Of a stretch of DNA of 64,000 nt, positions 25,441 through 64,000 are shown piece by piece. The position numbers and the translations under genes are program-made. The first letter of the stretch is position 1; each line of letters starts with the position of its first letter. The notes under the pieces are model-generated. The model did not search any database. It had not been told where the DNA came from and was given only the letters and a program-made list of their open reading frames with translations. This DNA is from Takakia lepidozioides (lineage: Eukaryota > Plantae > Bryophyta), in assembly GCA_030704615.1 (NCBI GenBank), contig CM060731.1, positions 75,764,001 to 75,828,000 on the forward strand, read 5' to 3'.

Positions 25441-25654
25441 CTAAGTCCAACTGCAATCCCCTATGTATCCAGGGACCCTTAGGGTCACTGGAAATTCGGG
25501 AAAAATAGCAAAGTGGGCTTTCCTGGAGGAGTGATTGGCCCTTCACATGGGAGATGTGGAATTTCAAGTACTTTTGGTCGTTGGAAATATATATATAGGG
25601 AGACTGCAAAAATAGCATGAAAAGAAATAAATTGAAATAAATTGATTTTTTTAA

Positions 25655-26146
25655 ATTCGTGGATAGCTCAATTCTTTAGAGTTGCCAAGATTGCCACCTT
25701 CAAAGCTCAATCTTAAAGTTGGATGTCCAATCATGTTGCTGCGTGATATAGCTTCAAAACGTGGGCTTTGTAATGGGTCACGACTCATAGTCACACGTCT
25801 CAGTGATCGCGTCATTGAGGCACGCATTTTAACTAGTACACATTCTGGAGAAACAACATTCATCCCCAGAATCACATTACAACCTACCACATCAGAGATA
25901 CCTTTTAAGTTCACTCGAAGACAATTTTCAATGAAGGTGGCTCTTGCTATGACAATCAACAAATCACATGGACAATCCGTAAAACATGTAGGTCTATATC
26001 TTCGAACACTTGTATTCTCTCATGGTCAATTATGTGGCACTCTTTCGGATCACATCAGCACATTCGTTGACAGTCCTTCTCCCCGATCAAAATGTACCAA
26101 AAACAATGAATATTGTATATACATAAGTATTAATATAAACTTCTAA
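25655..26146 (+). mobile_element. Helitron RepHel fragment (C-terminal Pif1-family helicase)
   Basis: [17 protein letters not shown]...GLCNGSRL...FIPRITL...FKFTRRQF...[11 protein letters not shown]...VFSHGQL, with a frameshift after GQL. Confidence 0.9.
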
Positions 26147-28255: not shown

Positions 28256-28450
28256 CCCCTTTAGTGGTAAATACAAGCCGGCAATCTCTTAGGTAAATTG
28301 TTTTGTAAATTTCCTAAGGTATCAATTATCGGTAGGAAATTCTGGGGAACCATTCGGCTAGCATGTAACTGCCTGCCTGTTCGTTGCCCCTTACTAACGT
28401 CCGAGAAATCATTTGAGTTCAACCAGCCAGTGGCCCGTCATTCCGAGCAC
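28256..28450 (+). repeat. Left part of a ~240-bp tandem repeat array that resumes at 51331
   Basis: Homologous to the units at 51331-52012 (taggtaaatt...aatttcctaaggtatcaattatcggtaggaaattc...gagttcaaccagccagtggc...cattccgagcac). Confidence 0.9.
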
Positions 28451-30111
28451 ATATAAATGATGTCAGCCAGAGCTAGCTTAAATAAGAGCCTCTTCCCTTT
28501 GCAGGTACTGTCCCCTTTCAGGGGTTGGGCTCTATCAGAACCAGAAACAGTTACGTAGTGGCAAACTGACCACTTTCAATCTTTCTTTTGTTGAGGATTA
28601 AGGTTGTAAGTGACGTAATAACTGTGAAGTGTAGGGTGTGTAGGAGTGGGGTGGTGTAATATTTTAACAAAAGTTTGAGGTTTCTTTGAGAACTTGAGTG
28701 TTGTGGCAATGTGCTCCCCCTCTGACACCAACGGTAACGATAATCAAACGGGCAGTGTTCCGTCCATGGTGACGAAGGGCTAAGAGGAGCGGTCCATATT
28801 TTTCACGTTTATACATAATTGATTGGTCTCTATCATGACAAAATGTAAATTGTATTACATGAATGGTGAGGGAGGGATGTGGACCCGTTAGTATTGTTGA
28901 TGAAAGAGGTAGTCCATAGATAAGTAGAATATCAGGGCATAACCTTGCTAGACAATGACATGGGATATAGAGACAGGTGTAGGGTAGAAGCCATGGAGGT
29001 ATTGTATGGTCCGGTGGTCTACCTTGAAATGTACTTGCATTCATTTGATGAGCTTAAACCATCTGGATTTAGGATGTGACAGAAGAAGTTTTTGAAGATG
29101 CCAAACTCCTTGGTTATGTTTGGGTATATGTAGTATGGGGTGCTTACAATGGAGAAGCAGGTGTGGCCGTGTGTCTACTTTGGGGGTTTGTGCGTCGCAT
29201 AATATGCAATGCTTGTTAGGATATAATAAAGGTCAGAATAGATTTCTTCTTTGATTACCCATGTATTGGCCGTACATCGGAATCGTAGTGTTTGTATGAT
29301 GTGGACATCAGTAATTATATGAGAGGTTCCAAAAGTGGTTGGACATGACATGCATTAGGTGTGGGGAACATGCCCATTTTGATATATGTTTTTGTGTAGG
29401 TGCGGGATACTTGGATTTGTTGTTTAGTTTCTTGTGACATATGTGTGTAGATCTCGTATAGGTGCGATAGCAGGGAATCTCGCCGTAGTTGAGACGAGCC
29501 AAAATGGATATGCGTATGCTAAGTGAATAGGATCAGCTGAGGGATTTACAGAAGGCTGAATGGAGCCGAGCTGAGCCATATGGTCTGCAATGTCATTTTC
29601 CTAATATGTGTGTATCGGAGCGAACTTTATGTATATGGATTTGTAGCGGGAGGAATGAAGTAACATCAATGATTGCTGTAATAAGGTTAAGGTCTAGATG
29701 GTGTATTTGTGTAGAAGGTTTGAGGATTTGATTGGTGAGGAGGTAGAGAGAGACTTCCATAAATAGGTAATAAGTTGAGCCTATGGGTTGGTGTTGATTT
29801 TTTAGGGCATCATGGATACCCATGAGTTCTGCGCGTAGGATATTTTGGCGTCCTGGTAGTCTTTGTATGACCTCAAGTTATCTTTAACGGAATAAGTGCC
29901 ATACCCTGCTTGCGCCTCTTTGAGGGAGCCATATGTATATATCCATTGTTGAGGTGGGAATTTCAGAGGAGAGGACGTTGCGAAGTCTAGGATCGGTGGT
30001 ATGTATGTTGGTGGGCAATAGTGTCCAGAGTGGTCTTGGGGTCGCCAATTTCCATGCTTTGTCTAGGTTGACTCGAGGATATGTGCATGGTGAGGGGGTT
30101 GGTGAATATAC
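28451..30111 (-). mobile_element. 3' part of a Dualen/RandI-like LINE (RNase H + CCHC finger + restriction-like endonuclease), degenerate
   Basis: RNase H motifs LPGRQNILRAELMGIHDAL and IHIHKVRSDTHILG. Zinc-finger remnant at ~29140-29210. RLE region PPWLLP...PDILLIYGL...IHVIQFTFCHDR...KREKYGPL...VGVRG. Confidence 0.7.
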
Positions 30112-30732
30112 CATTGTTGGGCGGGTATATCCTTAGGGTATAAATAAAATATTTTTTGTCAAATCATATACCCTCCGGATATGGATAAATTGAAATCTCA
30201 AAAATTTATTTACCCTCTGGGTATGGATAAATTAACTTTTCAGATTTCTATATAACCCCCGTGTAAGGATATATATGCCAAAATATACCTTGAGGGTATG
30301 AATAGTTTCCGGGTATGGATAGTTATTTCAATTAATATATAATTTAATGGTTTTTTAAATTACGATGTTTTCAAATATATAAAAAAGGAAACAATCTATA
30401 GAAAATTGATGAGATATTGCATAATATTTTGGTTTTAATTCCCAATGCAAACTTGAGAAAGGAGGTTTGAGATTCGAAAAATATGTCGATATCAGGAGTT
30501 TCTTCTACGTCAAGAAAGTGGCCATCCATTTGCTGCCTACGAATGGTATATTTTGCTGATGACATACTCGTTCAAGGATCCATACTCATGAACTCGAAGA
30601 ACCAATTTCCGTGTCAATAGTGGCTATCCTACCATATCTACATTTATGAAAGACAACTCAATTATATCCTAATTCCTAACTCCTAATGCTTATATACCCT
30701 GATTGGATATACATACCCTTCAGTAAAGTAGG

Positions 30733-31102
30733 GTAACAATGCGTGTGCAAGCCTGGGAGCTCTGGAAAAGGGGAAAGAGGTCCATGGTGACATTGTCAAA
30801 GCTGGAATTGTACCAGATGCCATTCTGAAGACTGCCTTGGTGGACATGTATGCCAAATGTGGGTGCATTAAGGATACAAATGGAGTTTTCAACATTATAA
30901 CTGAACGACATGTGGTGTTGAGGAACGCGATGCTTGCAGGGTATGCACAGCAAGGGCGCGAGATGGAGGCTTTGGAGACCTATGATCAAATGATGGAGGA
31001 AGGGGTGAAGCCCGACCACATCACGTTTGTGTGCATTTGCAGTGTGTGTGCAAGCCTGGGAGCTCTCGAAAAGGGGAAAGAGGTCCATGACATCGTCAAA
31101 GC
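30733..31102 (+). pseudogene. PLS-class pentatricopeptide repeat (PPR) gene fragment
   Basis: ACASLGALEKGKEVHGDIVKAG...TALVDMYAKCGCIKD...VFN...VVLRNAMLAGYAQQG...EAL..YDQM.EEGVKPDHITFV...CASLGALEKGKEVH; truncated at both ends. Confidence 0.9.
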
Positions 31103-31426
31103 TGTTGTCAAGTTAAATAAACATAGTGTGAAACTAACTAGAATAAATCTAGTTATTTAACACTTGGTATTAGTTCAAGTGTTAAGTCAGGTGTCAAGTT
31201 TAGCTTGACATCTGAACCATCTTATCTTCACGAGCTCGTTAGTCGTGCGGCTCATATCTCTCGAGTTGAGCCTGCACGACCGAGCTCCCTCGTTGCTTAG
31301 CATCTGAGTGTACTTATGGAGGGAGAGTAGGATGTTGTGGGGTGGAGTCCCCATAGCTTGGGGTGCCCCTGGCTTGACTCTTATTTTAACGAGTGATTAT
31401 ATTGTATTTCGTATTTTGTGTCAACA
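31103..31426. mobile_element. Probable LTR (TGTTG...CAACA) cutting the PPR fragment
   Basis: Starts tgttgtca and ends tgtcaaca (inverted termini). No matching TSD. Confidence 0.5.
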
Positions 31427-34400
31427 GCCAGTGTGAGTTTAGTTTTCATTTCACTCGAGAGAGATGCTTTGTCTAGATTTTTGTAGTGCTAAGCTAGATA
31501 GAGTTCTTTTATGTTAGCACTATGTCGATGGTATTTGAAGTAGGGAAAGCACAACTCCTAATGAGTGGTTAAGGTAGAAGTCATTGATGCCAGTTTTGTT
31601 TGCGGTATGGTACGATGGCGTGCATGGGAGGCACAACACAGGATGTCAAATAAGAGGATGGAGGCTTGGACAGCCTCGTAGGCTCTACGCATGATATACA
31701 AAGCCGGAGTAGCAGTTGTGCGGACAAACAGCTCGGCAGGTTGTTGCTTGCAAGTTGGTGAAAGAGCAAAGCGGCTTGTTCAAAGTGGGCCGTGAAAAAG
31801 CTGGTGGAGTGTTGCTTGTGTCATAAATGTTGTCAGAATCTGAAGCCTAGCATGTTTATGTGCACAAGAAAAAGAGTCTGGTGATCAGCCCGTAGTTAGC
31901 CTCCCAGTAGCATATTGGGCGGTGAAATCTTGCAACAGGGGCTAGCGGTTGCTGCAACCTGGTGAGACAGTGCAGGCACAAAGAGGGGCTGGGCGGCGTT
32001 GAAGCAGCCACATAATACAGTCGTGGAGCTTGCAGGGTAGCCAGAGTAGAGGAATACACCCGAGCTACAAGATGCTTGGTCGGACTCTTAGACCCTGTGT
32101 AGCCAGGAACATTTAAGACCGAGTTTTGTTGTATGAAGCTTTCACAGTACTCTAGTAGGCCACACATAAGGAGGCTATTAATGGCGTGGCCCTCGCCAGG
32201 CACGGCACAGCAGGCTGTAGTGGTGCAATTGTTTCTAGCATGGCTGTCGGTTGGAACGTCGTGACAGGCCTGGCTAGTGCAGTAGCGGCCTCACCAGTGC
32301 TAGGAAACAACATATGATGGTTTTGAAATCGAATGATGCTATATGGACCAGTTCAGTTTGCTTGACAAGAAGATCACGAAGAGGACTGGCGATTTGTTTG
32401 ACGGATTCTTTGAACGACGAGACGAGGCAGTTGCTGTCGAGTTCGAGGACACTGGGCTATATACTCCACAGAGTCGTTTGGTTAAATGTGAAGAGACAAA
32501 TGGCACACAAAAATGGGCAATGCGCACTTCAATGATGGAATGACTGAGTGATCAGTCCTGTGGCAAGATGAACATGACGGATCTTGAGACTGTTGGAGAC
32601 CTGCAAACAGTGGAGTTTGGATGGCCTTGACTCTAGGAAGGTGTGAAGAAGATTGACAAGCTCCTCCGCCGTGACCAGGTTGTGGTGATCTCATTAATCT
32701 CTGTGTTTTTCATGGTGGGCTATTTGAATTGGAACTGATCAGGGATAGTTTTGTCTGCCATTCGAATACCAACGTTCAACGATATGGCTGGCCACCACGT
32801 TGAAGTTGAAAAATGGTGGATGGCTGTGAAGTTGATTAGTTAATTCAAATGAGGGCCAATTGCTCTTGAATCGCTGGCCGAAGGAGTGTCAGGCTCTGAA
32901 CGGTTGGGGGATTTTGCGGGCACTCGCAGGGCACTGTATTTTGAACTTGATGGGAACCTACAGGGAATCGCAAAAACAAAATATACAGAGTCTGTTTGGC
33001 CATATCTTTGTCATATGAGCTTCGTTTGACGCAGTTTTTGGGGGGATACCTACAGATTGTGGAAATCTACATATTCAGACATATTCAGACATATTCAGGT
33101 TTTAGTTTTTTGGACTCTGCCAAAAATCTATGGAATTTTTTGAGTGTGAGTGTGAGTGTGCTATGAAAGATCCACAATTCTGTTTCTAGAACCTGTTGTG
33201 GTCTACATGAGAGACAAGTCTGTGGATGTCCACCTTGTATGGCTGGGGGCAATGAGGACGTAATTGAAGGGCATGTCTCTTCTCTTAGCCTGTGCACACA
33301 ATGAGACAAGATTTATGTTTCTCAAGGAACTCAGACTGATTTGAGTGGAGAACAGTTGGACGAGTTGATTGCATACTGGAAGTCAGGCATTAGCAATAGA
33401 CAGCAAACTGCTGTAGTTGGCATTGAGGGCCTCAATATTGCTTTGGACAGTCAGAACTCTGTTGGAGCAAGCAGTTCTGCAGCTGTAGGTGAAATACCAA
33501 AGTGGGTGGAAGCTAGGCTTGGAACACAGCCAAAGACAGCCCCGGGGACCAAGGTGTTCAGCCACAAGGCCATGGTATACTGGAGCAGAGGAGCAGGAGC
33601 TGCACAAGTTTTTGCAATCAGACGTGGTTGCAGCCGGACACGCTCTGCACGAGGCAACCACGAACGTGGGTTCATTAACAACGAATAGTTTGTTCTGCTT
33701 GAAGGAGATGCAGTCATTCGCAACGAGGACACCCGCAACCGTCTCAAAGCTTTCGAGTTGAAGACTGTCAGACCCTACCTTTATTTTCTTTAGTATTCAG
33801 TGAGCGGGGGATAGAGGAGTATTATTTTGTCTCTACCTGGCAGAGAGAGGAGGAGGGTTGGTTAGAGCGAGCTACTGTAGCTTGGGATAAGGTTAGTGGC
33901 AGGTTTCTGGATATAGATATACCTCCCACACCTTACCATCATGGAGAGCGAGGCACTTCGAGAGAAGTCTGGCAGTTGATAGCATAGATCAGAATTAGAT
34001 CTTGCTTGGTCGGACCTCTATTCTTCCCCTCCCTCTCTTTACTATTTTCATTACTTTGTACTTGTAGTTGTCAAAGCCTCTCTTGGTGGAGGCCAGTCAG
34101 TCCGGGGTTTTTGGGCTGGGGTATTCTGCAGGAGCAGCACTGCGGAGGGATTTTGGTGTGGGGGTATTGATGTTTTGGTTTCTTGTGTTTGGATCCCCCC
34201 CACACCTGCATGCTTGACTGTGCGCCATGTTGGTTTTGTGTGGGCACTTGCTTTCATAGGGATTAGGCCGGATTTGATCACCGGTCAATCCTAGAGTATG
34301 CTGTCGGTGGTGAGGCTGGAGTGATGACCAGCCAACCATAGGAGTTCTTGCGGTGGATGCAGGTGCAGGTGCCCTTAGCCACTGGGATATGACCCTTAAT

Positions 34401-34435
34401 CCGCAACAGGTGCTCACCCGTGTCACTATTAGAAT

Positions 34436-37400
34436 TAGTACTAGAGCCTTAAAGTGTCACGTGGGGGAGGTGCGGGTTGTGAGTGTCATCACGGAGTTAC
34501 CCAAGGGTTTTGAGGGGAGTACGGCTACAGGCAGTAGCAGTGAGAACAAGATGAGGTGTTCGATTTAGACCACCCTCACCTCCACCCTCAACTAGTGCAG
34601 AGTCTGACACAGACTCGGAGGTTTCATCAACAGGTGTGCAATTTCCTTTGCCATTGTTGTGGGACGACATGGAGGAGATGTATGGAGCTACCAAGGGGCC
34701 TCGTAGGTACTCTGGAGCTGTGGGCACAATCGAGCTGGATGACTTTATCCAGGAGTTCGACAGCTGGTGTGATTTGCAGCAGATGCGCAATCCACAGCTG
34801 TTCACCCCATTCATGGCGTGGAAGGGACTGTTCCAACATTTGGAAGGCCCGCCTATGGACGATTACGACGAGTTTAGGCGAGGACATGAAGCAGAGATTG
34901 AGGAGTAGAGGATGTATTGGTCACCTGACTACGTCTCCATTACTCGAGGCACGACGCGACCAGTAGCTGCATCAGTACCAATATCTCCCACTACCAGCAC
35001 TAGTAGTGGAACAAGTAGTGCCGGTACTTCTGCAGAAGGTGCTACTACTCCTCCTGCCACGACTACAACACATGTGCCTAGATTCAGTCCGGTGGTGGAG
35101 TTCTTCCAGGAGTTGCAGATGAACTACCAAGGCGTACGCACAGAGAAGCTGCAAAGTTTGCAAGACTTCCAGCACAAATCCAGTGAGAGATTGCGAGAGG
35201 CCTACACTCGTATGAGGCGCTTGATAAGTGTGACCCAAGGGGTTACTGAAGCTCAGGCAGTCCAGCTCTGGTATGGAATTTTGGACAAGGAGCTCGGGAG
35301 AAGGGTGCGGGATGCAACCCTGTTACAAGCGGCCCAACCCACATTAGCAGATGTGTTTCTACTGGCTGAGCGGATTGAGCTCAACATGGTGGAGGAGCGA
35401 GTTGTTACCATTGGATTTGGCAAGGACATGTGTGCACAAGGCGCAGCTGCTAGCCAATAGGCACAAGGGACTGCCCAACAGTGTGGTAAGGGGGGCAATG
35501 TTGCCCAACCCAAATTCCATGGAGCTTACAGGGGATCTCAGGTGCAGAGGCCAATAGCTTCTTTTGCAGGCCAACAGCAACCAGGGGTGGTATGTTGGAC
35601 ATGTGGAGGATCCCATGTCAAGAAAGATTGCCCAGAGAGTGACAAAGGGCTGGCACAAGCACAGCCTGCACAGTTGCAGTGTGGGCATTGTGGCAAGTAT
35701 GGACATGGAGATGCCCAGTGTTATGACTTGCACCCTGATTTGCGGCGAGACCAGTTCCAAGGGAACAATGGTGGCCAAGGGCAAGGTAGAGCACCTCAGA
35801 GAGGACGAGGTGGTCAAGCACGAGGTGCAGGACGAGGGCAAGCACAGTATGGCCAAGGACGTGGAGGTCAGGGCGTTGACCAAGGCATGGCCAACCGGCT
35901 TCAGCAGCTAGAACAAAGGCTTACTGCCATGGCCACAGCTCAGGTGGTACCAACTCCAAGACCTGAGGGTCCACCTCATGTTCCTCCTCAGCAGCGTCAT
36001 CCTGACAGAGTAGACATGGGAGGCATGGGATTTATGTGTGGGGCAGCACTACCACTAGTGCAGGTACAGTCTGCTGCAGCCGTCACTCAAGGAGCAGCAC
36101 GAGTTCCTGAGCCATGAGGTGCAGAAGTGGAGTTGGATCCAAAGCGTGGGGAGGCAAGCCGTCAGGCTAGGTTGCCTCAATCATTCATCTTGGCGGAGAT
36201 AGTGTCAACGACATCCATGGCACCTAGTTCTCGCCCGACGGATACCGAAGTAGAGGCTGTTATTGTGCCATTAGGGAGAGCTATACGTGCAGCACTGACA
36301 CCTGCTGCCAAGGCTAGTGCAGCCAGTGTATTGTTGGGGGCGGCCACCTCTGTGTATCAGGCCCCACTGTTCTCGGCAACCATGATTGCAACGCCGGGGG
36401 TAAGACCAGCTGCAGTGTTTAGACTAGCAGCAACACTCTGCGAGAGTGGGGAGGTCACTTCATCTTCTGCGGAATTAGTGGAAGATGTAGTGGCAGAGGG
36501 ATCCTCCGATTTGAGGGTCAAGACTGCCACAACTGCGCCATGACAAGCTGCAGCTGTCAGGTTGACGGAGTTGCCAGCTAGGCCAGCCTTTGAGCGCGCC
36601 ATGGTGACACCTGGAGTTGTCTTGTTAGACAACCAGGATGGCATTTTCTCTTTGAGTGGACCGGCAGGCAAGAGGTACCGGCCACCGCGGGTCTTGTTGG
36701 ACTCGGGAGCTCAGCCACTGATGTTGGGAAGAGCTGTTATTGCAGGTTTGGGCCTCATGGAGGCAGATATGGAGCCTTGTTCTTTCCAGATACAGACATC
36801 TTTGGGAGGATCAGAGGGGCGCATGATTTGGAGCGGGTTGACCCTATTCACTTGGTAGTGGCAGGTTGGCCCTGCCAAGGGCATTCATCAGCCGGGTATG
36901 GCAATGGGTTACAAGACTCAAGGTCACGCCTGTTTTGGGAGATGCTGAGGGTCCTGCGCTATTTACTGCTTCAGCAGACAGACTCTCCGGCATATATCTT
37001 GGAGAATGTTCCATTGATGGGTGATTCTCGGGCCAAGGTGATGGCCAGTGTACATCAAGTGCGGTCTTGGCTTGGGTCAGCAGTATTGCTGGATGCAGCT
37101 GCAGTGGGGTCACGGGCTCATCGCCCACGACTATGGTGGACCAACTTGATGCCACCTGCATTGCTCAAGCGTGCATTTGGTGGGGTGCAGTGGCCCTCTA
37201 ACAACATTTGATGGGGTGTAGCGGCCAGCACACCTCACATTGGATAGCATTTTGGACATAGGGAGGCAGTTCAGCGTGTGAGACACGTTGACCGTTCGCC
37301 TTTGGCAGTGGTCAACAAGGTGGGTCAACCACAAGTAGCATTACCTACACTGCTCAGCTTGCCAGGATCGCATGCTTTCCGGGATAGTGGACTTGGCCTC

Positions 37401-40400
37401 CTTTGGGATAGCCAGTTGCAGCAGTTAGTGGAGCCCAATGCTGACGAGTGCGAGCGGGCAATGGGTTTTACCACTGGTACCACGGCGGTGCCATCTCTTT
37501 CTGAGGCATCACGTCGTCAGGTGTTGGGGCAAGCCATGGATTTCAATTGCTTGACCTGGATTATCAGCTTGGCTATGGCTGAGCAGCGCAGAGTACGGAG
37601 TACACTTCCCTTGATAGTCTCTCTGCCTACCGAGATGGTACATGCAGCGAGTGGGGGTGAACAGGTGAGGATCACAAGGTGCAAGCTGCATCCATGGCAC
37701 ACGTGGGAGGTGCTCGAGGTTCAGAGGGAGTTGGCAGCCAAGGCAGCGGTGATGGATGAGGTTGGGGATTTTTCTCGGGTTGAGGAGGTCCTTAAGGATG
37801 GGATGATGGGGCAGGATGAGACATTGTCACTGACAGAGCATGCAGTGGTCACTGCTCAAGAGGTTGCAGCATAGCAACCACGGGACGCGTCTTCTATCTC
37901 TAAGCCTGCTGGACTCAAGGTTGCAGTCACGGAGGACAACTGGGAGCCTGATGTTGGACCCATAGTCACCGGAGGAGAGAGACAACGTATACGGCGGTTC
38001 TTGAGGGCTTACAGGAACTGCTTTGCCTTCAGTTTGAAGGACTTGGGAGCACTGAAGGGTCAAGAGATTCACATTGAATTGGCCACTAACACGCCAATCT
38101 TTTGGAGACCCTATAGATACAGTGACATGGAGAGGTCCTTGATTCAGATGAGGACTCGGGACCTTTGGGAGGTTGGTTTGGTGGAGCTATCTGGTGGAGA
38201 GTATGATTCAGCCACAGTGATGCCAGCCAAGAAGGTTGTCTATGGCAATTGGATGGAGAGACGTATGTGCGGTGATTACCGGCCTGTAAATCGTCAGACC
38301 AAGTCCGATAGGTATGCCATGCCAACACCAGAGGAGATCTTTGATGCCATTGGGCATGCCAAGGTCTTTAGCTCTTTGGATTTACGATCCGGATATCACC
38401 AGTTGCCGATCAAGGAGGCGGATAAGTAGAAGACGACATTCTGGGGGATCAATGAGCACGCGAATGATTGCCTATACCAGTGGCGGTTCTTACCATTTGG
38501 GCTTAAGAACGGTCCTGCAGAGTTTCAGAGAGTCATGGACAGGATTCTAGCAAGGGTGGAGTTTGCTCGGGGCTACATAGATGACATCATCATCTTTAGT
38601 GCTACGGTGGAAAAGCATGAGAGACACCTTGAGGTGGTATTTGAGCGCTTGAGGGCGCACGGATTGAAGTTGCATCCGAGGAAGTGCAAGTTTTTCCACA
38701 ACCAGATTAAGTATCTGGGTCACATGATATATCCTGGAGGATTGGGGGTACAACAGACTAAGGTAGAGGCCATTGCACAGATTCCACGCCCCACGGATGT
38801 AAGCAGAGTTCGAGCTTTCATGGGGTTGGCAAACTATTATAGACGGTTTGTCAAGGGATTTAGTGCCATTGCAAAGGCTCTAACCAAGCTGACCAAGGTG
38901 GACCAGGAGTGACAGTGGGAAGATGAGCAAGAACGAGCTTTCCAAGAGCTCACCTCAGCGCCCATCTTGAGACGACCTATCAGGGGGCGTCCTTTTCAGC
39001 TGCATACAGATTGGAGCATGCTAGGGCTTGGAGCGGTGCTCACACAGGTGGATGATGAGGGAAGAGAGTTCGTAGTGGCTTATGCCAGCCGCTCGAACAA
39101 CGCTGCCGAGGCTAAGTATAGCTCATATGAGGGAGAGTGCTTAGCTTCAGTGTAGGCCGTGGCACACTTCAGGTGCTATCTATATGTCAATCTCTTCATC
39201 CTTGTCATGGATCACCAGCCACTCAAGTGGTTGATGGAGTCAGACAAGCTTATGGGGAAGCTTGCACGGTGGGCACTCATACTTCAAGAGTATGACTTTC
39301 AGGTTGTGCATCAACCGGGTTTGGTCAATCGGGATGTGGATGGGTTGAGTCGCAATCCATGCACGAGCCAGCAAGATGACACTGGAGCTCGGTGGCATGG
39401 TGAGACGGACGAGGAGATGATGCCCGGATGACATGCATCTGCATTTCTGTGTATCTTGGCAGCGGAAGCCCAGGTTGGAGCTACAACAGGGATGAATGTA
39501 GACCGAGTGTCTGAGGACCCTGAGGCCAGCAATGAGCAAGGTGGCGCCAAAGATATACATGAGGATTCAGCTGTGTTGGACTATCTCCGCACTGGGGGCA
39601 CGGCAGCCACTGTGATTGCCAAGGAGAGGGATCGGATCCTACAACGAGCCAAGAGGTTCAAGTGGGAGGGGACACACCTGCTTCGAGTGTGGGAGGATGG
39701 TCGAGTGAAGATTGTGCCTCACCCAACCCAGCGGGCACGGTTAGTGCGGCATGCCCATGAGGAGTTGGGGCATTTTGGGGTGCGACGCACTCATAGTCTA
39801 CTACAGGGGTAGTATTGGTGGCGTGGTATGCACACAAAGGTGCAACAATTTGTGGCTAGGTGCATGGTGTGTGACAGGGTGCGTGCTTCATTCAACGCCC
39901 CTACACCACAATTGCACCCTCTTCCGATCATGGGATTGGGCTACAGGTGGAGTCTTGACTTCGCAGGGCCGTTGCTATTGACCATGCGCCACAACAAGTA
40001 CGTGTTGGTGATGGTGGAGCACTTTTCCAAGTGGATCGAGTTGGTTCCATTGCCTGATAAGGCTAGTGAGGGAGCTGCGTATGCATTCTTGGATTGTGTA
40101 CTTAGCCGATTCGGTGCTCCAGCTGAGGTACTCACGGACCAAGGGAGAGAGTTCTTGGGGGAGTTTCAGGCGTTGTGTGACAAGGCCTTGGTAGACCACC
40201 GCACCACTTCTCGGGATCATCCTGAGGCCGATGGCTTGGCAGAGAGGGTTGTTCAGACAGTGAAGAGGGGTTTGCGCAAGTATGCCTTGCAGAAGGGACA
40301 CCTAGGAGATTGGGACCTTCAGTTACCTTGGTTAGCCTTGGGCTACAGGTTCAGCAAACAAGCATCACTTGCCTCCTTCTCACCATACTTTCTTCTCTTT

Positions 40401-40794
40401 GGCCGAGAGTCGGATTTGTCTACATCCATTCGTAGAGAAGCTGCTACAGTTCTTAACCTTGACGATCCGGACATGTGGGCACGTGCATGTGATCAGCGTG
40501 CAGAGTTGTTCAAGCAAGTCATGCCCATGGCTTTCGAGAACCTTGCCATTGCACAACATTGTGATACGTTGAGGTATGCTACCATACGTGGTGGGGGCTA
40601 TCGTCCTGGGGTTCGGAGATTTAACCCTGGTGACTATGTTTATCTGCAGCAAACTGCTCCTACGACCCTGGATGTGACTGCAGGACGTACTATTTTGAGG
40701 ATTCGAGAGGTGTTGCCCTCAGGAGTCCTGATCTTGGAGGGTCGGGATGACATGATTTGGAAGGACCATGTGCGTAATTGCGCGCCATGTCACC
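34436..40794 (+). mobile_element. Ty3/gypsy LTR retrotransposon internal region: Gag(2xCCHC)-protease-DNA cytosine methyltransferase-RT-RNase H-integrase; decayed, 3' end lost or interrupted
   Basis: Degenerate iMet PBS tagtactagagcc (34436-34448). Zinc knuckles CWTCGGSHVKKDC and CGHCGKYGHGDAQC. Protease LLDSGAQ. RT RMCGDYRPVN, LDLRSGYHQ, YIDDIIIF. RNase H TDWS, YSSYEGE, DHQPL. Integrase HEELGHFG..CMVC, WSLDF, TDQG, GLAER. Domain order is gypsy-type. Confidence 0.93.
36816..37570 (+). pseudogene. DNMT3-like C5-cytosine methyltransferase domain inside the gypsy polyprotein (motifs IV, VI, VIII, IX, X; I-III deleted)
   Basis: LVVAGWPCQGHS (PCQ 36870-36878), SRLFWE, YILENV (37002-37010), DAAAVGSRAHRPRLWWTN (37122-37145), ERAMGF..GTT (37452), RRQVLGQAMD (37524). 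Confidence 0.92.
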
Positions 40795-43700
40795 TGTTAG
40801 AGGGCTGCTTGGTACTTAGACGCTTTTACGGGATCTGTGGGGTACCCTTAATTTTTACACAGACTGAGACCAACAGGAGCCTTAGGGGTGATAGCAACAG
40901 GCTTTAGGGGGGGAGATACACAGCCCGACATAGCCCATCATAGTCCGACACAGCCGACACAGCCGACACAGTCAGACACAGCCGTCACAGCTCCGTACAG
41001 CCAACACAGCCCGACACAGCCGACACAGCCCAACACAGCCGCCACAGCTTCGCACAGCCCTACACAGCCTGATACAGCCAGTCACAGCTCGGCACAGCTG
41101 GGGGACAGTTATCATTGGCAGGGAACGACTGTGGGGGAACGATATCTGAAAAAAGAACGTGTACTACAGGATTGACGGTTAGTTAGGAAAGCGGTTAGAA
41201 CAGCTTGTAGGTAGATAAAGCCAAGAGCGGGGACGTCTGGGAAATCACTTCTGGGGGGGACTTCTGGCATCACGGCTGGGAGATCAGGTGGGGAGCGCAT
41301 CTCTGAACGAAAAGATGGAGAGCACGAAGTAGGAGGAGAGACGATCTGTTGATGCTTGATGAATGCAAGCTGTAGAGTTATAATGTAGAGCAGTTTAGAG
41401 ACGCCATGGCTTCAGCCTGATACTTGATAGAAATTAATCTGATACATACTTCATACTCACACTGTGTAGAGAGACCTGAGTGAAGCTGTGGAATGGATGG
41501 ATGAGTTGATGGAACCTGATAGATTGCTGAAGCAATCTGATACTTAAATTGCCAACAGTAAGGGAACTTGCTAACATGAATACGGGAATGAATACAAATA
41601 GAAAACACCCCCATGATACACTAGCTGTAGGTCATGACTGATTGTTCTGAGCGGGCTGAGTGCTTAGAGATTTCCAACTCTTCTATCTTGGAGTTCCCAC
41701 CTCGGATAGCGAAGGGATGGGTGAGTAAAAGCCGCCCGAAATTTGGCGACCATACTGGGGAACTAAGTCTTGAACAACCAGATGTGACAGGCATCTAGTG
41801 GGATCATGGTGGTTGGAGAATTAAAGAATTTGATGTGAATCAAATTCCCTGTGAAACTGAGAAGGAAAGATTGTCCAAACGATTCTTTCAGAGGTTCTTG
41901 GAATTGCCAGACGGTTGTAAAGAAAACATTCTTAAAAGAGTGCATGATGCTGACCCTGAGTGGGGTCTGGAGAAGGGAGTGATAAAGATTTATCAGGTGG
42001 CCTGTAGAGGAAGAGCACGTTGGTTATCAACACTGGTTTATATGGAAAAATGGCGCCGAAAAATAAAATAAAAATGATAGCATTGCTATCCATTAAGCGA
42101 GTAGAGTTTGAAGGCTGGGAGGAAAGGAAGGTGAATGTTTATATTCATATGCATGAAGAGCTTGTACTGGTAAAGAATTGGATTCCAAAGGATATTCTGT
42201 GGATCAAACTCACACCAAGAACAGCTTTCCAGACTTGTTTGCCATATGGTTATATGGTAACGGAGACTTCTAATATAGCCAAGGGTGCATTGAAGCTTGA
42301 AAGAAACCCAGGCATATACGAGAGATACTACAGAAGAGAGTTTTGGTTACTGCCACATTAAAGAAATGAAAGACATGGGACATGAGTGATGAAAGAGAAG
42401 CTAGACTCCAGAGATATTAAGCAAAAAGAGAAAGTTATCTGAAAGCTAATTATCCATATCTTTGGGAGAGAGGAATAGACATAGGGGAATCATCTGGACC
42501 TCTCACACCATTAAGATCAGAGAGTACATCACCCATACCGGAAGAACTAGAGTTGGATGCCACTCCTTCTTTTTCTTTGCAAGAAAGATTAAGGGAATTG
42601 GTACGGGAAGAAGATCAATCACGAGGTGAAAGATCTGAGGTACATCCCTGAATAAAAGATTTGACAGAAATCTTTGATAAGAGTTGGCATGGAACACCAA
42701 AAGCACGAACTCCAGTTTCTGAAACGGAAGGTGAAGAAGGAGGAGAGGATGTGGCAGAGCCAACGGAGAGTTCAGACTCTCCAACCCCATTACAGTTGAG
42801 TTACATGAGTGAAGAAGAAACCCAAGGGCAGAACTTAGAGGATGAAAATAGAGAGAAGAAATTGGAAGAGGAAGAGTATGAAGAAGTAGACCCAACAGCT
42901 GAGGTTGAGACTACAACCAGGACATCCCAACCCGTTGGACCTGGATCAAGTGGAGCACTTGGATCACAGGCCAACAAAGGTGTCGGCTCAGGGGGATCAG
43001 GCGGGCAACCTGGATCTGGCTCTAGAGGGACAGGGAGTGTGGGAAGTAGTGCAACTGGAGCTGGGAATACTGTGAATATCGTGGGGCCAGTAGCAAGGAG
43101 TGCTCAGGGGGCACCACTTGGTGGGAGATCCACCACAACTACAACAGGTCCTCAAGGACCATCACCTGTCAGTGGGCAGAAGGTAGGGCCATAGATGGCG
43201 TTACAACCAACACGGGCAAAACCACCTTTTCCAATATATTCAGGAAAAAAGGATCCCGATGTACACATTAGCCAATTTGAGCACATGTGTATAGTGAACA
43301 ATGAGAATGGCGATGATGCCAAGATGAGACTGTTTCCTTGTTCCCTTATCAAGAAAGCAAGTGAATGATATGCAAGATTCCCTGATAATCATTTCCTAAC
43401 CTGAAATGGCTTGAATACAACATTCCGAAATAGGTTCAGGACAAGTAAAACTGAGGATGAAGTGTATGGAAGTTTACAACAGTTAAAGCAAAAGAAGCAT
43501 GAAATTGTTGAGGAGTATATGGAAAAAATGGAATTGTTGATGAAAAAGCTGGCTGCTGTACCAGCACCAGGTTTACAGAAGACTTGGTTTGTGAGTGGAC
43601 TAAGACCAGAGTTGCAAAAGAAAGTGGATATGTTACCCCATAATACAGTGGAGGAGGCATTTGAAACAGCAAACAAAATTGAGCAATTGGGAATGCTCAG

Positions 43701-46700
43701 GAGAGAGAAAATGGATGATGAGGACTCTGAGGATGAGTCAGATGAAGAAGAAGAGCAAGAACTGAAAAGGAAGAGTAAGAGAAAGGAGAAGTTGAAGAGG
43801 GATAAATATGAGAAAAAATTAGAAGAAATCTTGAAGAAGTATGCCACAGAGGCTGCAACACATTGGAGGAAGGGTGTTTGGTGTGCAAAGTGCCAGAATG
43901 AAGGCCATACCACCATTGAATGCCACATGAAGGAGAAACATTGTACTATCTGTAAGATGGATAACCATTCTACTGAGAATTGTTACTACAACAGAAAGAC
44001 AGCTGCAAGAGAACCTAGGCAAGTAAGGGTGCATCAAGTGCAGCCCCAGCCAAGAAGAAACAGTGATCAGGACCACTATGGTAGGCCTGGTGGTTATAAC
44101 AATGGCATGGAAGGGAGAGGTAATTCAAGAGGGGATTACCAAGGAAATTCCAGAGGTAACTATCAGGGTAATCCAAGGGGGAATTACCAGCCAGGGAATC
44201 AGGATTACAGAAATAATCCTAGAGCAGACCAAGGGCGAGGACCCAATGGTGAAGAACTGTGTTACTATTGTAATCAGCCAGGACATCGCAAGGCAGCCTG
44301 TTCATTCTGGATTAGACACCAGAATGAGATGAGAGCTCATGTGAATGAGGGCCCAGTGGTGGCGGCTCACATGGTTAGGCCATGTGTTGTACCAGAAGTA
44401 AGTACAATGATAGTAACGAGAAGCAAAGCCAAACTAATACCTCCAGTAGTTGAGGAAGATGATGATAATGAAGATGACAGTGATGTGCCTGAAGATGATG
44501 AGGCTTGGAGAGATGAGAAGGAACTGCACAAGGAGGTGGTAGATTTCATAAGGGAAATGCAGAAGAGTACTGATATTCCTATGGCAGATTCCTCTGATTC
44601 TGAAAGAGAAGAGGAAGTGAGTGAGGATGAAGGGAAGAAAGAAGCTGCAGACATGTAGAGTAATGAAGGGACTTTGGCTGAAGTAACATGTCAGACCAAA
44701 GCATAGATTACTATTGGACAGCTATTGGCTGTGGCACCTTATTGTAGACACGGGCTGTATCAAGCAATCAATCGAATTGCCCATGTGACAGAAAACACAG
44801 ACCTGAACAGCAAGGTGACCAATTATAATGTGAAGCCGGAAGGGCGAGAAGCAGTCATGGACTTTGATGATTCTATGCCAGTAATCCAATTGAGAATTGG
44901 AAGCACAAAACTAACTGATGTACTGATAGATGGAGGCTCTGGAGTGAATATCATGACAGACCAATTAAGGCAGAAGTTTGGTCTAAGTAACATGAAACCA
45001 GCCCCATTTACAGTAACAATGGCAGATCAAAGAAATGTACAACCATTGGGATTGATAAGAGGAGTTAAGATACAGATACAAAAGATGATCTTTATGATCA
45101 CGGTAACTGTGTTGAAAATGGATGAAGTCATGGAGGCTTACTCCTTATTATTGGGACGTCCGTGGCTGAAACAGGCCAGGGTATTCCATGACTGGAATTC
45201 TCAGTTACTAACTGTGCATAATGGGATGCACAAGATACAAATTACCACTAAGAAATATAGTAGATTACCTGCTACGAGAAGACCTTGAGGGGTCAGGGAG
45301 TATGACTGGAGGGGAGGACTGGATGAGGAACAGGAAGCTACTCTGTTCGCTGCACACCCAGAGTGGGAGCAGGTTGCAGAGATGCAGCTGGAAGGCCTAA
45401 GTTGTTTAAAATGTATCTGTTGTGGTGTAGTGACAGCAATACCAATTGAAGAGGAAACCAGCAGTTACCCACCACATTTCTATGAAGAAAGAGAATGAGA
45501 AATGGAAATCCTAGAGGAACCAGCCACTGTGAGTTTACAGGATGAAGTGGTGACTGGTTGAACAATCACAGCTGTTGAGCAGGTGAGAGAAGTGAATGTG
45601 GGAACTGAAGAGGAACCGAGGATGGTGAAGGTAGGAGCTGATTTGGAGCCAGAATTCTTTGAGGAAGCTAAGAGTTTGTTCATCAAATACAGAGATGTAT
45701 TTGCTTGGAGCTACGAGGATCTAAAAGGGATACCACCTGAGATCTGTCAGCATAAGATTGAACTGGAACAAGGGTCAGTACCAATTAAACAGGCAAGGTA
45801 CAGAATGAATCCCAACTATGCACAAAAGGTTCGAGAAGAGATCAAGAAGTTGGCTGAGGCTAAGTTTATATACCTGATAGAGTATACAACTTGGTTGTCA
45901 CCCATTGTGATAGTTCCCAAGAAGAATGGTAAACTGAGAGTTTGTGTGAACTATAAGAAGTTGAATGCTTGCACGAAGAAAGATCATTTCCCTTTGCCAT
46001 TCACAGAAGTGGTATTGGACACTGTGGCAGGCCATGAGATGTACTCATTCATGGATGGCTTCAGTGGTTATAATCAAGTGCAAGTGGCAGAAGAAGATCA
46101 GGGAAAGACAGCTTTCATCACAGACTGGGGTGCTTATGCATACAAAGTCATGCTTTTTGGACTTTGTAATGCACCAGCAACCTTTCAGAGAGTGATAAGT
46201 GAATCTTTTCATGAGTATCTGGATGATTTCATGCAGGTGTTCTTTGGATGATTTCAGTGTGTACAGCTCTAAGAATGAGCACTTGCATAAATTGGAGTTA
46301 TGTTTGGCCAGATGCAGAATGAGAGGTCTGGGCCTAAATCCAGAGAAGTGTACTTTATGTGTGAACTCAGGGGTGCTTCTGGGACACATTGTGTGTGAGA
46401 GGGGACTTCTTGTGGATCCCAGGAAGACAGAGGCCATTAAAGCCTCACCACCACCAGTAAATGTTATGAATCTAAGGAGATTCCTTGGACAAACCAGTTA
46501 TTACAGAAGATTTGTCAAAAGGTATGCACAGATAGCAGCACCATTGAGCAAGCTTCTGAAGAAAGATGCAGTGTTTGCATGGACAGCTGAATGTCAACAG
46601 GCTTTTGAGGAACTTACATTGTCAGTAAAAACTACACCTGTGCTGATTAACCCTCACTGGCATGTAGTATTTCATGTTCACTGTGATGCCTCAGGAGAAG

Positions 46701-48373
46701 CGTTGGGAGCGGTGTTAGCCCAAAATGTTACAGGAAATATAGATTCACCTATGTACTATGTTAGCAGGTTGATGAACAGTGCTGAAAGGAACTATAGCAC
46801 AACTGAAAGAGAAGCATTGGCAATGATTTATGCAGTCAAAAAATTCAGGCATTACCTATTGGGAAGAAAGTTTATGTTTTATGTGGATCATCAGGCTCTG
46901 ATATATCTGGTGAACAAACCTTTAATAAGTGGAAGGATAGCGAGGTGGTTAATAATCTTGCATGAGTTTGAGTTCGAAGTTGTTTACAAGCCTGGCCGTT
47001 TGCATCTTGTGGCAGATCACTTGTCACGACTAACAACAGGAGGGGCCGCCACAGGAGTAGACGATCAATTACCTGATGCGAGTTTATTTGTAATGGAGGT
47101 GCAAGGAAGTGCAGATGAATGGTTAGATTGGCAGTGGCCAATCAGATACTACCTTACTCATGGTCAGTGCCCACCTAGTTATGGTAAGGAGCAGAGGAAG
47201 AGAATCGCTATCAAGGCTTTACCTTATACTATGGTAGGAGGCAGAATGTATAAGCTAGGACCTGATGGAGTACTTAAACGATGCTTGTACCACCATGAAG
47301 TAAATAAAGTTTTGGAGGAAGTTCATAAAGGAGTGCCTGGAGGACATTTTGGAGAAGAAACTACCAGTAGGAAGATACTACTTGCAGGTTACTGGTGGCC
47401 TACTTTGTTCAAGGATGTACACAAGTATTGTCAGAGTTGTGATGAATGTCAGAGGCTAGGACCTTTGCAGAGATCTGGAAAAATGGCTTTGCATCCTACG
47501 ATGCCTACTGAACCATTTCAAAAATGGGGACTAGACTTTGTTGGACCAATTAACCCACCAGCCAAGAATACACAGAACAAGTACATAATTACAGCCACTG
47601 ATTATACTACGAAGTGGGTGGAAGCTAAAGCTTTGAGGGACAACACAACCAAGTCTACAGCAAGGTTCCTGTATGAGAACATACTTACACGATTTGGCTG
47701 TCCCTTGGAATTTATCAGTGATCAGGGAAGTCACTTCATTAATGAGACCATTGATCTATTGACTAAAGAGTTCATGATTGTGCATAGGAAGAGTACAACG
47801 TATTACCCACAGGGTAATGGTCAGGCAGATGCTACCAACAAAATACTATGTACTATCTTGACTAAGATAGTCAATGCAAACAGAATGGGCTGCTGACAGC
47901 TTTGTGGTCATACAAGACTTCATATAAAGTCACCACTAAGTATACACCATTCCAATTAGTGTATGGTATGGAAGCTTTACTTCCAGTGGAATTCTTGTTA
48001 CCTACTATGAGAATGGAATGGGGAAAGAGAATGGAATTGGAAGATTCAATTAAGGTCAAGAAACATGAATTATACCATGTGGAAGAAGTACGTGCTGATG
48101 CAGCTGATAACATGACCAGAATTCAGATGAAGAGGAAGGAACAGTTTGATGAAGACAAGTTAAAAACTTTTAAGACGAGAGATTTGGTTCTCTGGTTGCA
48201 GAAGAAGGGGAAGATTAAAGCTTCTAAGCTTAAATCACCATGGAATGGACCTTATGTCATACAGAAGATGTATGATAACAACACCGCCATGTTACAAACC
48301 ATTAACAAAGAGATGTTGGGAAGAGTCAATGTCAATAAGTTGAAGGGGTACAGTGGTATCCATGACAAACCAT
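40795..48373 (+). mobile_element. Second Ty3/gypsy element (non-chromovirus, Athila/Tat-like) inserted in the integrase C-terminus of the DNMT element; 5' LTR ~40795-41741, no 3' LTR
   Basis: TG start exactly where the WKDHVRNCAPCH frame ends. PBS tggcgaccatactgggga (41744-41761). Gag with CAKCQNEGHTTIEC, CTICKMDNHSTENC and CYYCNQPGHRKAAC. Protease LIDGGSGVN. RT FMDGFSGYNQ/LDDF. RNase H CDAS, YSTTERE. Integrase GHFG, WGLDF, SDQG, GNGQ. Confidence 0.92.
41744..41761 (+). promoter_or_regulatory. Primer-binding site of the second gypsy element (tRNA-Arg-type, inferred)
   Basis: TGGCGACCATACTGGGGA resembles the TGGCGACxxxGCTGGGGA tRNA-Arg PBS of Ogre/Tat elements. Confidence 0.6.
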
Positions 48374-48950
48374 TGTAACACGATTTGCATGTTGAAACGC
48401 ATAAGCAATCACGGGCTGCGCCAGTGATACCAATGGAGTATGGAGCACTTGTCGCTAGGCCGAGCGTATATGACCAGGGCGGGCAGTACAAGCGCGACAC
48501 AGCCTATCACAGCCTATCACAGCCCATCACATCGTCACACAGCCTATCACAACCCATCACGGCGTCACACAGCCTATCACAGCCCATCACGGCGTGACAC
48601 AGCCTATCACAGCCCATCACAGCGTGACACAGCCTATCACAGCCCATCACAGCGTGACACAGCCTATCACAACCTACCACAACGTGTCACAGCCTATCAC
48701 AGCTTACCACAGTATGACACAGCCTGTCACAACTCAACACAGCTTACTGGGATTACACAATCCATAGGATCAGTGACAGGTGGACGTGGGTTAACATCCG
48801 GAGAGTGGCCGGCGGAAAAGTGGACGGAGGCACGTTTAGAAATGGACACGTGGACGTCAGGGCGAGACACACAGCCGGACATGAAGTGCAAGAACGGGTG
48901 TCATCAAGAAAGAAGACAAAATTGACCGTCAAAGTACCTACCTGGTACAG
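48374..48950 (+). mobile_element. Truncated LTR of a third, related gypsy family, with an ACAGCC-core tandem repeat
   Basis: TGTAAC start immediately after the integrase with no PPT. Repeats at 48495-48745. Unique sequence differs from the LTR at 40795. Confidence 0.6.
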
Positions 48951-49598
48951 CAACTAATTGTGGGCCCATTAATGCATTCAGTACCAGGGTAACGGAATCA
49001 TTTTCGAGTTCAGAAAAGGGAATTAAATTACGAAACCAATCACAGAGCCAACAGCAAAATCATCAAGCAGTTCATTCCTTCATAAAAACCTCCATATCAT
49101 TGTGCAGTGCCTTGGGGAGTGTTTAAAGCTACACTTCTTATGAAAGGACCATAGCAAGAAAATGAGTGGAAGAAGGTCTAATGAATTAGGATGTTCCAAG
49201 ATAAAATGATAGATTTTGAAAATTTCTCACATATCTCATAAACTAATTTTTAGGGCTACATTGTGGTTTCCACGTATAACGGTGACCTTCCTACTGGACA
49301 ATAAAATCCCTATGTGAATTGAAGTTTTCCACCACTCCATTTGATTCCATATAGTCCACAACCTTACTTTGGACATCATACATACTTTTACGTTTGGACT
49401 TCATTCAATGCTCAAATCTCCATGGATTCCAAAAAAAAAACCACCGTTGTTTTCAGCACAGAATAAGGATCAATGATCATGTCTAAACTGTCAAAATGCA
49501 CTTATATCCCACATCCATGTCAGTCCTTCTATGTGGCACTGCATTCGCAGAGAGCTTGGGATGTCCATTTTGGGTGGACCGTAGCATGCTTTGACCTG

Positions 49599-49801
49599 GG
49601 AGGTGTAGTGCCAGAGGGATCCTCGGATTTGAGGGTCAAGACTGCCACAGCGGCACCATGGCAAGCTGCAGTTGCCAGGTTATGGAGCTACTAGTTAGGC
49701 CAGCCATTGAGTTCGCCATGGTGACGCCTGGAGTTGTCATGTTAGACAACCAGGATGGCATTTTTTGTTTGAGTGGACAAAAAAAAAAAAAAAAAAAAAA
49801 A
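49599..49801 (+). mobile_element. Second, diverged fragment of the DNMT-gypsy family (Gag-protease linker) followed by a poly(A) run
   Basis: Colinear with 36481-36661 (gagggatcctc.gatttgagggtcaagactgccaca...ttagacaaccaggatggcatttt...ttgagtggac). A-run at 49779-49801. Confidence 0.9.
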
Positions 49802-51248: not shown

Positions 51249-51327
51249 TATGGTTGTGGGGCCAAACAACTCTCTTAGTATTTGATCTTGTTGTCCAAAG
51301 AAGGTGGGCGTTATTTGTAAGGTACAA
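51249..51327 (-). mobile_element. 5' remnant of the Dualen-like LINE split by the TIR block
   Basis: Minus frame TLQITPTFFGQQDQILRELFGPTTI joins in frame to VYSPTPSP at 30111. Confidence 0.6.
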
Positions 51328-51330
51328 AGC

Positions 51331-63860: not shown

Positions 63861-64000
63861 CCACTTTTTCAAAACTGATGCGTGGTCTCTTCTTGAGGGA
63901 GGAGCCAATAAACCCCCTTACGAGGCCATGAGGGCAAACAGTTGCAGAGCCCCAGCCTGAAGACGAGAGAGACAGCTTACATGGGTTTGAACCCCAGACC

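Follow-up and report, generated by a model that had tools for sequence, protein, structure and literature searches.

The 64,000-nt stretch of Takakia lepidozioides contig CM060731.1 analyzed in this report (the window) contains a dead copy of a Ty3/gypsy retrotransposon family that carries a DNMT3-like C5 cytosine methyltransferase (MTase) between its protease (PR) and its reverse transcriptase (RT). Comparison with related copies indicates that the MTase is a family-wide part of the element and not a one-off capture, and that the Gag-protease frame of this lineage closes with the MTase, at a conserved stop codon. It is proposed, and moderately favored, that Gag-PR-MTase is made at coat-protein level by means of this stop and packaged, and that it methylates new cDNA of its element prior to insertion. 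Domain order, the stop with its context and purifying selection on the MTase are seen directly; the PHD finger, leader, polypurine tract, split repeats, palindrome and target duplications are seen in relatives only.

Identity and conservation of the methyltransferase domain

An earlier reading of the window (the sequence-only reading) had described a DNMT3-like MTase with motifs in non-permuted order. All motifs named there are present: LLDSGAQ of the protease (36694) and GWPCQGHS (36864), ENV (37002), RPRLWWTN (37122), ERAMGF (37452) and LGQAMD (37524) of the MTase. The check suggested for this region, a comparison with PF00145 (DNA_methylase), gave a match at 36816–37208 with an E-value of 4e-11 and 43 bits (cut-off 22). 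The best solved structures for the MTase piece of the window are DNMT3A/B/C (E 2e-6, compared with 4e-4 for M.HhaI). The C-terminal piece 37248–37610 by itself has no solved-structure match. A profile of the family MTase finds DNMT3A in the PDB with an E-value of 3e-25, followed by DRM (5e-13), HhaI (2e-7) and DNMT2 (2e-6). An AlphaFold model of the MTase of the relative L078 (predicted local distance difference test score 84) has DNMT3A/B as its best Foldseek matches. In relatives, motifs I to X follow the non-permuted order and the intronless domain lies between protease and RT. The DNMT3-like type and non-permuted order that had been read from the window are supported by structure, profile and fold matches.

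The hallmarks of host DNMT3 and DRM genes (DUF3444; permuted motifs) are absent from the element domain, and Pfam scans found no DUF3444 on the scanned family proteins. The host proteins PpDNMT3a/b have a DNMT3-type catalytic domain too, but differ by a C-terminal DUF3444 (PMC6453930; this and the other papers cited are referred to for the parts of their text that were available).

Used as a protein query, the MTase piece of the window matched 80 proteins among 857 candidates (P numbers). Named matches come from Marchantia polymorpha, Calypogeia fissa, Sphagnum troendelagicum, Sphagnum fallax, Klebsormidium nitens and Haematococcus. Scanning of metagenomes yielded a further 130 relatives, of which 80 were kept (L numbers). 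The main metagenome group is called moss-type because it groups with Sphagnum proteins. Full-length MTase domains are present in 38 of 81 loci. The catalytic Cys and the motif I Gly are invariant in these domains (38/38 each) and the motif VI Glu is found in 36 of 38. Both the domain in other family members (80 proteins, 80 loci) and an intact motif I in relatives, which the sequence-only reading had proposed to look for, were found. Motif VI reads EHV in P0064 and other Klebsormidium-type proteins, and ENV in land-plant copies.

Between families, the proportions of nonsynonymous and synonymous differences (pN and pS) are 0.21–0.36 and 0.64–0.75, the latter near saturation. The corresponding rate ratio dN/dS of the MTase is about 0.08–0.22 for 12 pairs drawn from different families, for which dS is close to saturation, and 0.38–0.69 for three pairs of decayed sister copies. 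These values argue that the catalytic motifs of the MTase are under purifying selection in the family.

The MTase of the window is 61–67% identical to the Calypogeia, Marchantia and moss-type copies and 41% to Klebsormidium. For RT-RNase H the values are 74–76% to bryophyte elements and 43% to Klebsormidium. An RT tree places the window in a set with 96% support, together with Marchantia, Calypogeia and the moss-type loci (quick MTase and RT trees, rooted at the midpoint and calculated without host DNMT3 rows).

Capture of a host DNMT3 fragment by this copy alone, contamination with algal DNA or a chimeric contig has practically no chance of being the explanation. The window copy does lack motif I, and no single contig covers the whole stretch. 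Against this stand the 80 related proteins, the 80 loci in the same order, MTase bins that match gag bins in depth in the host runs, nearest relatives that are bryophyte elements, and PPR, SPARK, UDPGT and Psb27 domains in the flanking genes. All three candidates are refuted by the family-wide domain, the bryophyte relatives and the land-plant flanks.

Architectures within the family

Long loci have the order Gag-knuckle-PR-MTase-RT-RNase H-integrase-PHD. Pfam scans of relatives place the PHD finger at the C-terminal side of the integrase, instead of a chromodomain. Its nearest solved relatives are the fingers of CHD4, PHF12, PHF21A, KAT6A, KDM5 and UHRF1. PHD fingers of these types read unmethylated H3K4.

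The MTase profile matches 485 clusters at E ≤ 1e-30. The top 150 matches are transposon-type or bare domains: RT or RNase H precedes the MTase in 70 clusters, the MTase lies directly before the integrase in 19, 12 are (Gag-)PR-MTase, four are MTase-RT, 43 are bare and two are of other types. Named members include the chlorophytes Scenedesmus and Haematococcus (MTase after RT/RNase H) and Closterium (MTase-RT type). In the second architecture (P0079 of Haematococcus, P0173 of Scenedesmus and 68 more of the 150), the same MTase is situated between RNase H and integrase, mostly with a PHD finger. Its members group together, with a support of 100, in the quick MTase tree as well as the quick RT tree. 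Two of its members, P0158 and P0236, have a G-patch domain between MTase and integrase.

Prokaryote and viral collections contained weak, partial MTase matches alone, apart from L082 (CADCWO010000201.1). This plant-type element has both frames open and was assembled as a circle. Its contig was assigned to a cyanobacterial metagenome bin, and its protein bears a bacterial annotation.

A conserved stop codon separates the methyltransferase from reverse transcriptase

The end of the MTase and the start of RT are present together in 50 rows (49 loci and the window), about 41 of which are distinct after accounting for 10 near-identical pairs. A stop is found at the codon homologous to 37872 in all 50 rows and in L082 too. 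Elsewhere in the 34 codons that precede RT, stops are found at any one codon in at most 9 of 48 loci. The contexts in the 50 rows are TAG CAA CCC (29), TAA CAA CCC (16), TAG CAA CCA (2), TAG CAG TTA (1) and TAG/TAA CAA CTC (2). At the level of families, TAG CAA CCA occurs in the window and L001, TAG CAG TTA in L078, TAG CAA TCA in L082 and TAR CAA CCC in the main moss-type subfamily. The amino acid of the second codon after the stop varies across families and its YY pattern is kept. UAG-CAR-YYA is the readthrough signal of the tobacco mosaic virus type, and most of the contexts listed match it or come close to it.

The matched coding region of L078 and L082 has no further stop. The Marchantia proteins P0011, P0353, P0360 and P0361 (1278–1281 aa) contain all seven motifs checked and share the same end point after the MTase. 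Several RT-integrase-PHD proteins of 1033–1073 aa start just upstream of RT. For Marchantia, Calypogeia, Sphagnum and Klebsormidium, the stop and the ends are known from protein ends alone.

This pattern indicates that the stop at 37872 is not decay. From the conserved stop and the ends of the Marchantia proteins, the MTase is assigned to the Gag-protease frame, which it ends in this lineage. The stop is likely read through to give RT-RNase H-integrase-PHD. Since the MTase lies in the Gag frame before the stop, the enzyme is predicted to be a bulk component of the particle and not a minor domain of Pol. The sequence-only reading had taken the MTase as part of Pol, from which the conserved stop now parts it. 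It had also placed the MTase in one frame with RT, RNase H and integrase. These four do share a frame in the window copy; gag and protease are in the other frame as a result of a deletion at ~36817–36821.

Split repeats and predicted self-priming in relatives

Relatives have split repeats in the order A-coding-B-A-B, found in L023, L061 and L066 and partly in L006, L027 and L069. A polypurine tract lies upstream of B, and A ends in CA. The site after A is without a tRNA-type TGG and is complementary to 14 nt inside A, ~27 nt downstream of a TATA-like box. From the position of the tract, the CA terminus and this site, which would serve as primer-binding site (PBS), B plus A is taken as the true long terminal repeat (LTR). 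Primer and PBS pair perfectly in L004, L023 and L078, whereas L082 shows a single mismatch alongside two changes that are compensated. Predicted leaders fold in the self-priming form (z −2.1 and −3.9). In L023 (1835–1855), L078 (8826–8853) and L082 (7225–7252), the site where transcription is predicted to begin lies within a hairpin. In the 3' repeat, this hairpin would mask the second copy of the primer sequence.

Integrated copies begin at A in 20 of 20 distinct left ends and with B in none of them (L066, with its deleted left end, was excluded), and they finish at B. Target duplications of 4 bp agree at all four positions in four of six loci and at three positions, with one transition, in the other two, compared with 3 of 314 cross pairs. 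Where the sequence-only reading had expected paired LTRs, relatives have split repeats; they do have target duplications. The B-A junction is the palindrome CAYGACA-GY-TGTCAYG in L082 and in three families whose repeats otherwise do not match by BLAST. At the A-B junction the two units abut exactly, end to end, in four of four loci. Divergence is 0.06–0.10 for pairs of B and 0.06–0.11 for pairs of A. Among 13 distinct tract-adjacent copies of B, five run on into A and eight into the flank (L012, L028, L038, L064, L007 and L014 were excluded as cut, deleted or rearranged). Copies of the form A-coding-B can arise if the circle has one repeat or is cut twice, by recombination, or through collapse of repeats in the assembly. 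In the simplest reading of these ends, a circular cDNA would be opened by the integrase at an internal palindrome.

Proposed mechanism and alternatives

According to the proposal, Gag-PR-MTase would be produced in bulk, readthrough would yield little RT-integrase-PHD, and the protease would release the MTase inside the particle. Self-primed reverse transcription, as in Tf1, would give B-A-coding-B-A. This cDNA would be circularized, and the DDE integrase would open the circle at the B/A palindrome, leaving A-coding-B-A-B or A-coding-B. Within the particle the MTase may methylate the cDNA, so that the new copy would arrive pre-marked, and the PHD finger may direct insertion to H3K4-unmethylated chromatin. 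Methylation of the cDNA and steering by the PHD finger are the weakest steps. Self-methylation of cDNA has already been proposed for DIRS elements by de Mendoza 2018 (PMC5890265); the conserved stop would supply a structural reason for it in this family. A related retrotransposon DNMT3, from Symbiodinium, methylates CG de novo in yeast (PMC5890265). A more comprehensive version is tentative and, taken as a whole, rather doubtful. It describes a large and old green-plant clade of PHD-bearing Ty3/gypsy elements with a packaged DNMT3 (at coat level in bryophytes via readthrough), self-priming and a circle opened at a palindrome, which would deliver pre-methylated copies to H3K4-unmethylated chromatin.

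Several observations, given here and in the next two paragraphs, weigh against the proposal. In the largest subfamily the stop is followed by CAA CCC instead of CAR YYA, with an ATG behind it; the stop is TAA rather than TAG in 17 of 50 rows; and no conserved RNA structure was found downstream of the stop (z +1.0 to −1.35). The MTase continues into RT without a stop in the algal-type proteins P0054, P0055, P0063, P0071, P0113 and P0167, and lies behind RT/RNase H in 70 of the 150 representatives. Gag-level amounts are therefore not needed for retention of the MTase. The ATG after CAA CCC in the largest subfamily makes re-initiation possible. The stop would then be genuine, but RT would be reached by re-initiation, by splicing or from a second promoter, and the MTase would still be a protein of the Gag frame. 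Such a bypass would fit the position of this ATG, two codons past the stop in the main moss-type subfamily, and the missing stimulating RNA structure. However, the window, L001, L078 and L082 have no ATG there, and the frame and the CAR-YY pattern are maintained across families. Very little weight is accordingly given to a bypass, and readthrough is preferred.

With respect to the ends, the pairing of primer and PBS is poor (at least three mismatches) in 14 of 20 decayed moss-type loci. The form A-B-A-coding-B, predicted from a circle with two palindromes, occurs in 0 of 20 left ends, compared with an extra unit on the 3' side in 5 of 13 (Fisher p 0.005). The circle model does not explain this missing form. 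The window copy, whose ends are lost, shows no LTR pair, tRNA gene, self-primer/PBS pair or left-end half-palindrome in searches of the window. The MTase might instead be kept for integration: by methylating or covering the uncut palindrome of A-coding-B-A-B copies, it would shield them from their own integrase and perhaps choose the palindrome that is cut. One intact palindrome is retained per full copy, its core has symmetrical CHG sites, and its one-sided use has no other explanation. The CG positions of the palindrome differ between families (CACG or CATG), though, and A-coding-B copies are common (8/13). A role in integration is thus considered decidedly improbable compared with methylation of the cDNA.

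As regards activity, the domain of KnitGypsy-Dnmt3 from Klebsormidium, the closest one assayed, gave no methylation in yeast, a result termed inconclusive by its authors (PMC5890265). The observed/expected ratio of CpG is 0.48 in the window element versus 0.18 in a neighboring gypsy element without MTase, so there is no footprint of CG self-methylation. CpG depletion did not discriminate self-methylation from methylation by the host. With the same anatomy, the MTase could be an epigenetic writer encoded by the transposon, the second option of the sequence-only reading. It would then act once replication is over or independently of it, and its targets would be the integrated copy, further copies or the chromatin of the host. 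In favor of this, an enzyme made at Gag level would be plentiful, the host runs show the family to be highly repeated, and the integrase bears a PHD finger of the histone-reader type. On the other hand, the MTase is without a chromatin-reading domain of its own, and the PHD finger lies on the opposite side of the stop. In moss, host DNMT3 and CMT already perform such methylation (PMC6453930, PMC10952607), and the Klebsormidium methylome is ordinary (PMC5890265). A writer of this kind appears rather unlikely, and packaging with methylation of the cDNA remains the preferred proposal.

Anatomy and decay of the window copy

The features of the window copy are listed in Table 1.

Table 1. Features of the window copy and of the sequence that truncates it.
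Feature	Position in window	Strand	Evidence and remarks
Upstream part of repeat (5' leader)	33110..34668	+	Contig depth step; true left end not found
gag and linker	34669..36621	+	tblastn with Gag and knuckle of Marchantia P0011
Aspartic protease, N-terminal half, gag frame	36622..36816	+	LLDSGAQ at 36694
Deletion/frameshift junction	36817..36821	+	Alignment with P0001 and P0011; loose contig ends at 36816
DNMT3-like C5 methyltransferase, motifs IV, VI, VIII, IX, X	36822..37583	+	PF00145 and structure matches
Conserved stop in frame, TAG CAA CCA; candidate signal for readthrough from Gag-PR-MTase into RT	37872..37880	+	Homologous stop in relatives
Reverse transcriptase, YIDD 38574	37995..38864	+	RVT_1 E 8e-25; premature stop 38427
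RNase H	38940..39314	+	RT_RNaseH_2 E 1e-21; premature stops 38910 (just upstream), 39153
Integrase (H2C2, D-D-E)	39675..40794	+	rve E 2e-13; premature stops 39429 (upstream), 39810
LTR-like stretch TGTTAG...CCAACA of a different element	40795..41557	+	Read from sequence; loose contig ends at 40795

The copy is dead because a deletion took motifs I–III of the MTase and because 11 of its 12 in-frame stops are premature. Compared with P0001 and P0011, 275–282 codons are gone at the junction, which comprise the second half of the protease, the linker and these motifs. Contigs that diverge from the window sequence at 36816 number 46 in run X1 and 3 in run X5. All four stops of the gag-protease frame (34906, 35458, 36115 and 36541) are premature. 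The MTase-pol frame has eight; seven are decay, two of them inside the MTase (37209 and 37245), and one (37872) is conserved in the family.

The sequence-only reading had let the element start at 34436, which proved too far downstream. In run X1, the summed contig depth climbs from ~1e4 to 2.7e5 at 33112–33164, and this step places the start of the repeat near 33110. In host-run contigs over 32900–34480, the left end of the host family is not apparent. The upstream region of the window gives one weak 60-nt alignment alone with the relative L023; a leader motif at ~34320–34400 is common to the window copy and the distant relative L078. Gag starts with MEEMYG and has two zinc knuckles (35593–35721). 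The protease of L078 matches Asp_protease_2 with an E-value of 2e-4, below the cut-off. The D/D/E residues of the integrase are located at 39957, 40137 and 40242. Since the integrase is cut at 40795 by the other element, the PHD finger and the 3' repeats of the relatives are absent from this copy, and a search with the relatives' domains found no PHD match anywhere in the window.

Upstream of gag, a coding-like stretch (33150–33770) includes a 127-aa open piece (33305–33688). In the host runs it is repeated as highly as the element, and it is joined to the leader in other contigs. The stretch has no match in Pfam, the relative loci or the candidate proteins; it is either an additional open reading frame of the family or belongs to the end of a different repeat. 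A 182-bp piece at 49597–49778 is 87% identical to the gag-protease linker (36479–36661) and has a poly(A) run behind it, which gives it the look of a retroposed piece of family RNA. A second Ty3/gypsy element without MTase (43405–48378, RT 35% identical) lies within the region 40795–48378 that interrupts the first; no LTR pair was found for it. Tandem arrays of ACAGCC follow purine tracts at 40935–41100 and 48461–48770.

Host context

Five of eight host-type exons flanking the element match Psb27, SPARK, RING, PPR and UDPGT domains (14 frames scanned). The Psb27 exon has nine matches, 67–70% identical to four proteins and 52–55% to five liverwort proteins. Together with the relatives in Marchantia, Calypogeia and Sphagnum, these genes agree with the land-plant setting suggested by the sequence-only reading. 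Judged by its genes, the host is a land plant.

Summed contig depth in run X1 is 2.7e5–1.2e6 over 33170–40981 versus 1.4e3 at 31868–32735; summed depth is no copy number, and runs X1 and X2 are one sample, from which the window itself may come. In the host runs, MTase bins are as deep as gag bins. The family is repeated in the host and carries the MTase.

A PPR fragment at 30732–31160 has very high summed depth in the host runs, which suggests a large PPR family. Helitron pieces (Pif1 2B, Helitron_like_N) are present at 25651–26146 and 60400–63900. A repeat unit of ~240 bp occurs once at 28257–28452 and, 23 kb apart, as a tandem of three at 51313–51998.

Relation to known systems

The closest known system is KnitGypsy-Dnmt3 of Klebsormidium nitens (PMC5890265), a precedent to which the sequence-only reading had rightly pointed, and the family described here is probably its land-plant branch. 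The two share the order PR-RT-RNase H-DDE integrase, a non-permuted Dnmt3 between protease and RT (P0064) and purifying selection. The DIRS-like repeats of KnitGypsy-Dnmt3 (legend of Fig. 4c, PMC5890265) resemble the A-coding-B-A-B repeats of the relatives. In contrast, its DNMT is in the Pol open reading frame (PMC5890265), whereas here the domain lies in the Gag-protease frame before a stop; the hosts are an alga and a land plant, and identity is 41% for the MTase and 43% for RT. The available text of PMC5890265 contains no PHD finger, self-priming or integration model, and its searched supplements contain neither the word PHD nor the name Marchantia.

SymbioDIRS-Dnmt3 of Symbiodinium is likewise a retrotransposon with an MTase and A-coding-B-A-B repeats, but it has a tyrosine recombinase (PMC5890265), unlike the family here, which has target duplications, a DDE integrase and a PHD finger. 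Across 13 + 9 + 20 proteins, Pfam scans found the rve integrase and no tyrosine-recombinase family. The EpiLTRs of Cymbomonas and Euglena also pair MTases with a chromatin reader; they differ in DNMTs that are sister to DNMT4 and in their chromodomains and DAM (bioRxiv 10.64898/2026.05.21.726589). Tf1/sushi elements and the plant element Tcn1 have no tRNA-type PBS and an RNA 5' end complementary to the PBS, as seen here in relatives. They are chromoviruses with ordinary paired LTRs, however, whereas the relatives have a PHD finger and split repeats; PHD and Klebsormidium are not mentioned in the available part of this survey (PMC6317226). In foamy virus, a DDE integrase cuts a palindromic circle junction (PMC1180852), as is only proposed here. 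That palindrome is the LTR-LTR junction and its cutting regenerates normal ends (PMC1180852), whereas here the palindrome lies inside the repeat and insertion would be permuted.

A literature search found no report on the land-plant copies, the stop, the PHD finger or the end mechanism; subscription journals were mostly uncovered, and published trees may include land-plant sequences. Streptophytes are mentioned loosely in PMC12344493 and bioRxiv 10.64898/2026.05.21.726589, as far as their available text goes. Retrotransposons with a DNMT are a known kind; the land-plant range, the Gag-level placement of the MTase and the permuted ends are what is surprising here.

Implications

Annotated "DNA methylase" genes in liverwort and Sphagnum genomes include these transposon proteins. 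If the proposed integration is true, a circle opened at an internal site would account for DIRS-like repeats alongside Gypsy domains, and the resulting end structure would explain why LTR finders would miss such elements. What transposon-encoded DNMTs do was left as a question in de Mendoza 2018, and until now it concerned algae, in which experimental manipulation is difficult. Because Marchantia carries the family with several uninterrupted Gag-PR-MTase frames, this question becomes testable in a model plant.

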